In this document: positions 61,474 to 61,918 of the stretch, in pieces
Layout: each line of letters begins with the position of its first letter
Position numbering within the stretch: the stretch's first letter is position 1
From: Escherichia coli
GTDB lineage: Bacteria; Pseudomonadota; Gammaproteobacteria; Enterobacterales; Enterobacteriaceae
Length of the DNA: 64,000 bases
Assembly (NCBI RefSeq): GCF_050920415.1
Contig: NZ_CP169309.1
Direction: 5' to 3' (one strand)
Program-made: the position numbers and the translations under genes
The notes under the pieces: model-generated
Databases searched by the model: none
Told to the model about the DNA's origin: nothing
The model's input: only the letters and a program-made list of their open reading frames with translations

Positions 61474-61830
61474 AGTCGCTGCCATTTATTCAGATAAAGA
61501 GTGCGTGGATGGTAGCAGAATTTCGCTTTGCTTACCGCCTGTTGTTAAGTGATTTGATCGATGGTTGTTAATGATGTCAACGATGGCGCAAAAAATGCCC
61601 GCTTTTGGTGCGCGCTGCGTCAGAATGGCGCAGTAATTTCCAGTAAATTTCGTCAATGATCACAATTCCAGAATTATATTTTACTTCTGCATAACATTGC
61701 GTTTTTTATTCTTTTTATTCACCTGCATCGCAAACGTATTCACTTTATATGCACTTTAAATGCATATGGTTTGGTTATAACTCCTTGATTTCCAGTTAGC
61801 CACCGCGGTTTATGCACTTTTATCACTGGC

Positions 61831-61846
61831 TGGCACGAACCCTGCA
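61831..61846 (+). promoter_or_regulatory. sigma54 promoter TGGCACG-N4-CTGCA upstream of astC
   Basis: TGGCACGAACCCTGCA about 70 nt upstream of astC ATG. Confidence 0.6.
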
Positions 61847-61918
61847 ATCTACATTTACAGCGCAAACATTACTTATTATTAACATATAAATAACGAATTA
61901 TTTACTGTAGAGGTCGCT

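Follow-up and report, generated by a model that had tools for sequence, protein, structure and literature searches.

What regulatory elements lie in the short spacer between the divergent genes xthA and astC of Escherichia coli, and how might they act together on the astCADBE operon? The spacer occupies positions 61474-61918 (445 bp) of the window, by which we mean the whole 64,000-nucleotide stretch that was analysed. Its borders are the start codon of xthA at 61471-61473 on the minus strand and the ATG of astC at 61919. Both flanking genes were assigned from the list of open reading frames and from annotation, in the case of xthA the RefSeq annotation of a 100%-identical strain and of K-12:

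60667-61473, minus strand: xthA coding sequence (exodeoxyribonuclease III).
61919-63139, plus strand: astC coding sequence (succinylornithine transaminase), the first gene of astCADBE.

The limits given for this 445-bp divergent spacer in the preliminary description are correct, and its length in K-12 MG1655 is also 445 bp. Of 5426 complete E. coli genomes, 5424 match an 801-bp query around the spacer, with 95-100% identity; every matching genome is annotated with xthA and astC on its two sides and astADBE next. Five substitutions separate the K-12 spacer from that of the window (at 61527, 61724, 61725, 61802 and 61807), none of them inside a motif. The region 61474-61918 is thus the ordinary E. 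coli astCADBE control region, placed back to back with the xthA promoter, and belongs to an already known system: it is the same locus as the K-12 control region with the astC sigma54 and sigmaS promoters (Kiupakis & Reitzer 2002, J Bacteriol 184:2940). Nothing is functionally different in the present strain. The literature account of this locus is one of dual control, by nitrogen through sigma54 and NtrC and by arginine through ArgR.

For a comparative view, we retrieved 80 astC loci, which represent about 20 genera of Enterobacteriaceae with no Salmonella among them, and aligned their 73 distinct spacers with MAFFT. In nearly all fetched loci xthA is the divergent neighbour, and most spacers are within a few bases of either 433 or 445 bp. 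The alignment displays sharp conserved blocks between stretches of drifting sequence. In single-consensus scans of the window, NtrC, ARG and CRP matches occurred at chance frequency, hence they were not used alone as evidence.

Transcription of astC is attributed to the following promoter and leader:

61830-61846, plus strand: sigma54 -24/-12 element CTGGCACGAACCCTGCA, the astC promoter, assigned by identity to ChIP-seq site OS17 and by conservation in orthologues.
61857-61918, plus strand: astC 5' UTR counted from the predicted sigma54 start, assigned by motif-to-start distance and conservation.

The sigma54 element TGGCACGAACCCTGCA is found at 61831-61846, exactly where it had been placed from the letters alone. 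It differs from TGGCAC-N5-TTGCW by a single mismatch (C for T before GCA) and keeps the 10-bp spacing between GG and GC. Because about 4 matches with one mismatch or fewer are expected per 64 kb (about 0.03 per spacer), such a consensus match taken alone would be only mildly informative. The longer 17-mer CTGGCACGAACCCTGCA, however, is letter-identical to the K-12 sigma54 ChIP-seq motif OS17 upstream of astC, and the K-12 promoter with the identical 17-mer is listed as experimentally confirmed (EcoCyc class C). Its predicted start lies 19 bp beyond the motif centre, which leaves 62 nt up to the astC ATG; in the window this is position 61857, consistent with the proposed -24/-12 element. The orthologous site of Salmonella, TGGCACGAATGCTGCAAT, was found by ChIP-chip; in the ast region of Salmonella Typhimurium, a different genus, it stands in place of TGGCACGAACCCTGCAAT here. 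Throughout the 73 orthologues TGGCAC and TGCA are invariant, while the five intervening bases vary. As expected of a sigma54 promoter, sites for an enhancer-binding protein lie upstream, in the form of NtrC-type dyads 200-235 bp upstream of TGGCAC. The 5' UTR holds a conserved TTAACAT (61878-61884) and a Shine-Dalgarno GAGG (61910-61913). Within it, an AT-rich stretch at 61873-61890 resembles an ARG box, with a mean of 7.7 bits across orthologues, a score that may be compositional.

The upstream end of the astC control region is formed by the candidate enhancer, whose elements carry no strand:

61596-61612: NtrC-type site 1, TGCCCGCTTTTGGTGCG, conserved, with 3 mismatches to TGCACC-N5-GGTGCA and its centre at about -253 from the sigma54 start.
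61616-61632: NtrC-type site 2, TGCGTCAGAATGGCGCA, with 3 mismatches to TGCACC-N5-GGTGCA and its centre at about -233, 20 bp from site 1.
61585-61601: 'inside-out' dyad, TGGCGCA...TGCCC in E. coli and GGTGCA-N5-TGCACC in many genera.

The GC-rich, NtrC-like dyads announced for 61560-61640, the range over which we scanned all registers, are real and correspond to sites 1 and 2. Single NtrC-like matches occur at chance level (25 found in the window, 22.8 expected). The tandem with a 20-bp separation is the sole one in 64 kb, and 2 of 2000 dinucleotide-preserving shuffles of the spacer yield such a tandem. Orthologues of site 1 have on average 3.07 mismatches of 12, against a background of 8.96 +/- 1.26 in other registers; for site 2 the mean is 4.08 mismatches of 12, with 4.03 of 6 dyad pairs retained (73 spacers). 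In the 73 orthologues the GC dinucleotides are invariant in all four half-sites, and dyad symmetry is maintained despite sequence change. The tandem has the multiple dyads of an NtrC enhancer, namely at least two of 17 bp that are close to each other and on one helix face. Its distance is another matter: NtrC enhancers usually lie 100-150 bp from the start, and with centres at about -253 and -233 that of astC would be unusually distant from its promoter.

Occupancy of the locus by NtrC has been observed in nitrogen-starved cells, in which a ChIP-seq peak is found at astCADBE with direct binding cited; genomic SELEX gives a peak at astCADBE too. These data hold at the level of the locus, and the placement on the exact bases of the dyads is our prediction. 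Converted to the window, the ChIP-seq peak (U00096.2 1830021-1830101) is an 80-bp call at 61824-61904, over the promoter and not over the dyads. In the same table the glnA peak is likewise displaced, by about 140-170 bp from the known glnAp2 sites. Because glnA shows an equal offset, the one at astC is uninformative rather than contradictory; as the 80-bp calls sit at promoters, we dropped the placement of the enhancer from ChIP peaks.

The inside-out dyad overlaps the left half of NtrC site 1 and is a perfect GGTGCAAAATTTGCACC in Enterobacter and its relatives. On average, 4.4 of its 6 dyad pairs are kept over the 73 orthologues, where the background is 1.63. It looks like either an extra NtrC right half-site abutting site 1 or the site of some other dimeric factor.

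Between enhancer and promoter lies an AT-rich stretch with ArgR-like signals, again without strand:

61665-61776: AT-rich ArgR region, an in-phase array of weak ARG boxes, assigned from a 10-operator PSSM, shuffles, conservation and literature.
61665-61682, 61686-61703, 61706-61723, 61727-61744 and 61748-61765: weak ARG boxes in 21-bp steps (PSSM).
61738-61755, with its partner 61759-61776: best ARG box (PSSM).

The 18-bp ARG-box matrix was obtained by consensus-seeded refinement on ten K-12 operator regions. It recovers the boxes of carAB, argECBH, argF, argI, argA, argG, argD, artJ and artP; the autoregulatory operator of argR was missed by the seeding, and that training pair is noise. The ARG-like palindrome TGCACTTTAAATGCAT of the preliminary description does exist, but its position at 61770-61800 does not hold: it is found at 61750-61765, about 20-35 bp further upstream, and it is weak alone. 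Its box, 61748-61765, scores 2.6 bits as a single ARG box; the best box of the spacer, 61738-61755, reaches 11.5 bits, a quality attained in about 20% of shuffles. The palindrome is the junction of the best pair, 61738-61776 (...ATGCAct-tta-aaTGCAT...).

Canonical ArgR operators, such as those of argF, argI, carAB P2 and argECBH, consist of two 18-bp boxes 3 bp apart that overlap the promoter. The astC region shares with them the half-sites TGAAT/TGCAT...ATTCA/ATGCA, the 21-bp periodicity and the same protein reported to bind. It does not contain such an operator: its best pair, 61738-61776, is degenerate (12.7 bits, as against 22.6-36.3 bits for the nine real operators under leave-one-out scoring), and its boxes are more numerous, far upstream (-192 to -81) and positive-acting. 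What the spacer does contain is several weak, in-register ARG boxes between enhancer and promoter, as in an activating array. The summed scores of 4-5-box arrays with 21-bp steps from 61664 and 61685 are matched by 7 and 3 of 1000 shuffles, respectively (p ~0.003-0.01), and boxes 61686, 61727 and 61738 have positive mean scores in the 73 orthologues, where the background mean is -11.8. Only the in-phase array and the cross-genus conservation raise the ARG signal above chance. By its letters the region is ARG-like as a degenerate, extended, activating array and not as a repressor operator. This agrees with the role of accessory activator that the literature gives to ArgR at the sigma54-dependent ast operon; the protein is described as binding between NtrC sites and promoter and as increasing expression in the presence of arginine.

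Directly downstream of the ARG array we found a further conserved element:

61778-61790, minus strand: IHF core consensus AATCAAGGAGTTA (WATCAANNNNTTR), a strict match centred at about -73 from the sigma54 start.

There are 4 strict WATCAANNNNTTR matches in 64 kb, and about 0.01 would be expected in the 225-bp loop. Seventy of the 73 orthologues retain the strict core at the aligned place, in 28 variants of the 13-mer that differ mainly at N4. Thus the element has both the core of an IHF site and the pattern of conserved positions around a drifting N4; an A/T-rich tract 5' of the core is missing, and the sequence found there on the same strand, TAAACCGCGGTGGCTAACTGGA, is GC-rich. As positive controls, the same type of search in K-12 returned AATCAAGGAGTTG just upstream of the IHF-dependent glnHp2, identical to AATCAAGGAGTTA in 12 of 13 positions, and recovered AATCAGATCTTTA upstream of pspA.

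According to 1991 work of Claverie-Martin and Magasanik, glnHp2 of E. coli is reportedly an NtrC-activated, IHF-assisted sigma54 promoter. Its likeness to astC extends to the sigma54 -24/-12 element, the tandem NtrC dyads upstream and the IHF core, which is one base off (AATCAAGGAGTTG as against AATCAAGGAGTTA). The geometry differs. Counted upstream from TGGCAC, the glnHp2 core is at 19 bp on the coding strand and the NtrC sites at about 90 bp, whereas the astC core, carried by the opposite strand, starts at 41 bp and the NtrC sites follow at about 200-235 bp, with an ArgR array in the loop. A review-type statement counts the astC enhancer among those without IHF sites, with another factor instead, and the literature examined yielded no link between IHF and astC. 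We tentatively suggest, as a minority view on our own scale, that the astC enhancer may also carry a functional IHF site at -73, with ArgR and IHF acting jointly in a rigid 200-bp loop that would bring the distant NtrC enhancer to the promoter. This conserved IHF-type bending site is possibly the one new detail of the region.

Three more elements complete the astC side of the spacer:

61848-61855, plus strand: sigmaS-type -10 TCTACATT (hexamer TACATT, C at -13), overlapping the sigma54 -12 region.
61646-61667, no strand: CRP-like site with core TTCGTCAATGATCACA (61649-61664), one good half, centred at about -200.
61809-61829, plus strand: strongly conserved promoter-proximal block TTTATGCACTTTTATCACTGG, from -48 to -28, directly upstream of the -24 element.

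The octamer TCTACATT is unique in the window and essentially invariant in nearly all orthologues. TGCAATCTACAT (61843-61854) is nearly invariant, and from its end to 61866 conservation remains strong without being complete, reaching further than sigma54 needs. The element has the attributes of a sigmaS promoter, namely a TCTAYACTT-type -10 with C at -13 and a weak or absent -35, whose position is taken here by TGGCTG. Together, the sigmaS-type -10 and the extended conservation fit the reported dependence of astC on RpoS, which is needed in stationary phase. The sigmaS start is predicted at about 61860-61862.

At the CRP-like site, AAATTTCG-N5-GATCACAA (61645-61667) is at least 95% conserved in the 73 spacers. 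Compared with TGTGA-N6-TCACA, the core has a perfect right half and 2 of 5 matches in the left one (3 mismatches), and with 216 comparable sites in the window this match is at chance level. CRP is named among the regulators of astCADBE. As for the promoter-proximal block, its consensus in orthologues, TTTATGCAyTTTTatCrCTGG, is near-invariant, and the ARG PSSM gives no match of 5.5 bits or more at 61809-61829. Candidate roles for the block are a UP-like element serving the sigmaS promoter, half of an ARG box or a weak half-site for NtrC.

From the enhancer to the promoter, the elements keep their mutual distances almost to the base pair. In all 73 spacers, which come from about 20 genera, 200-202 bp separate NtrC site 2 from the sigma54 element. 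Within this interval, the steps from NtrC site 2 to the CRP half-site (30 bp), from there to ARG box 61688 (28 bp), from ARG box 61738 to ARG box 61761 (23 bp) and on to the IHF core (24 bp) are each the same in 73 of 73. The step between ARG boxes 61688 and 61738 is 50 or 51 bp, and 71 of 73 spacers have 46 bp between the IHF core and the sigma54 element. By contrast, the distance from the xthA -10 block to NtrC site 1 varies among orthologues from 28 to 144 bp. Such constancy to within 1-2 bp, for all elements from NtrC to the promoter in 73 spacers, argues for a phase-locked nucleoprotein loop. A loop folded by proteins, which would bring NtrC to the closed complex, is our inference from the fixed phasing and from the ArgR and IHF elements that lie in between. 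On the K-12 chromosome (NC_000913.3) the elements correspond to 1832269-1832305 (NtrC dyads), 1832125-1832236 (ARG array), 1832111-1832123 (IHF core) and 1832055-1832071 (sigma54 motif), with the predicted start at 1832044. For Salmonella ast, a 1999 study by Lu and Abdelal (J Bacteriol 181:1934) is reported to place NtrC and CRP sites upstream, ArgR sites between, and two promoters.

The remainder of the spacer belongs to the side of xthA:

61509-61517, minus strand: candidate xthA promoter, extended -10 TGCTACCAT with C at -13 (sigmaS-like), within the conserved block 61508-61521.
61530-61584, no strand: filler of low conservation and variable length between the xthA promoter and the astC enhancer.

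The block 61508-61521, at least 95% conserved in the 73 orthologous spacers, precedes the xthA ATG by about 36-44 bp and may plausibly be a promoter of sigmaS type for xthA. Several other candidates were considered and set aside. A scan for sigma70 promoters and terminators gave 2 promoter-like matches against 1.8 expected, neither of them relevant. An Rfam scan of 61400-62000 with E up to 1 returned a lone mgtC_leader match, at 21.4 bits against a gathering score of 48, which we attribute to chance. Open reading frames in the spacer are not conserved: one of 56 aa on the minus strand spans the non-conserved, length-variable filler, and one of 41 aa on the same strand overlaps promoter elements. 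Sites for Nac (ATA-N9-TAT) or for PurR/LacI-type factors, and a -35 reading, were rejected for the conserved blocks on account of spacing or symmetry.

Could these matches be coincidences of AT-rich intergenic DNA, without any regulatory function? The NtrC, ARG, CRP and sigma70 matches are each at chance frequency in the window, as this would have it. Sigma54 and NtrC occupancy has been published, however, the statistics of the tandem and of the array are significant, and blocks are conserved at fixed spacing in 73 spacers of about 20 genera while the adjacent filler drifts. We give this reading practically no credence: the ChIP data and the conservation pattern have already refuted it. A more specific proposal concerns the TGCAy blocks between enhancer and promoter (61750-61765 and 61811-61817), which would be not ArgR sites but a 'governor' made of low-affinity NtrC half-sites, limiting transcription at high NtrC-P as in glnAp2. 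TGCAC(T/C) is indeed the NtrC left half-site, the canonical ARG pair scores weakly, 61809-61829 lacks an ARG PSSM match, and the NtrC ChIP call covers the promoter-proximal region. On the other hand, most other genera have TGAAT, an ARG and not an NtrC half-site, as the second arm; the TGCA arms lie at a distance of 11 bp, as against 13 bp in an NtrC dyad; within the scanned 61560-61640 no NtrC-like register occurs outside 61596-61632; the ChIP offset is equal at glnA; and the literature assigns the intervening sites to ArgR. This makes a governor very improbable, and we retain the ArgR array.

The element at 61778-61790 is less clear-cut, as TAAC-N3-TTGAT could instead contain the -35 hexamer (TTGATT/TTGATA) of an extra sigma70 or sigmaS promoter, or be the site of a factor other than IHF. 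In many genera TTGATA matches TTGACA in 5 of 6 positions, and the literature classes the astC enhancer as one without IHF sites. More than two promoters have been reported for astC, which we also count in favour of a -35. Yet no acceptable -10 is present 16-18 bp downstream (GTTTAT, 3 of 6), where the sigma70 scan is null, and the invariant TAA(C), at a fixed 4-bp distance with a free N4, would be left unexplained. Furthermore, the 13-mer is nearly identical to the core beside the IHF-dependent glnHp2, and the psp site was found by the same search. We therefore consider an extra -35, or a site for another factor, unlikely, though far from negligible, and continue with the IHF-type reading.

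As an explanation of the whole spacer, a composite astCADBE control region, combining sigma54/NtrC, ArgR, RpoS and further inputs, is in our judgement very probably the best one. Dual nitrogen and arginine control of the ast pathway, as it had been proposed, is supported by published ChIP and genetic data and by our tests (the NtrC tandem, the ARG array and the conservation in 73 spacers). The nitrogen and arginine part of the earlier picture thus stands, but that picture was incomplete, omitting the sigmaS promoter, the CRP input and the conserved IHF-type site.

We now propose how these elements may work together. According to the literature, sigma54-RNA polymerase binds the -24/-12 element at 61830-61846 and starts near 61857. 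Phosphorylated NtrC would assemble on the tandem dyads at -253 and -233, as their sequence and conservation suggest, and contact the closed sigma54 complex once the intervening 200 bp are folded. Folding would be assisted by ArgR-arginine hexamers on the ~110-bp in-phase array of weak boxes (-192 to -81), and probably by the IHF-type bend at -73 as well. In starvation or stationary phase, the sigmaS-type -10 TCTACATT may direct transcription from almost the same start as sigma54. The CRP half-site at about -200 is a likely carbon input. The 110 bp next to xthA would comprise the sigmaS-like extended -10 of xthA itself and non-conserved filler.

Elsewhere in the window, the strongest canonical ARG pair of the 64 kb lies at 23148-23186 (TCTGAATATTTTTGCACT / ATATGATGAATAATCACT) and scores 23.3 bits, in the range of real operators. 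Located in the 3' end of cdgI (yeaI), shortly before dgcJ (yeaJ), the pair may represent an ArgR target, so far unlisted, at a gene for a diguanylate cyclase. A sigma54-like TGGCACGGTTTTTTCA occurs inside cdgI at 23270-23285 on the minus strand. A second NtrC-regulated sigma54 promoter of the window is that of yeaG: its published sequence (ChIP-seq site OS18) is TGGCATGAGAGTTGCT, found at 28221-28236, also on the minus strand.

For the regulation of ast, re-deriving the motifs brings nothing new: the raw sequence yields a region that was dissected experimentally more than 20 years ago. Its value is that of a positive control, in which a real sigma54 promoter and its distant enhancer were recognised by eye from sequence. 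Two points could be of interest to specialists in sigma54 enhancers: the IHF-type core, kept across about 20 genera in a promoter that is usually cited as using ArgR instead of IHF, and the near-constant spacing of the elements from the NtrC sites to the promoter. As a whole, the spacer is a switch by which arginine breakdown is turned on under nitrogen starvation or general starvation.
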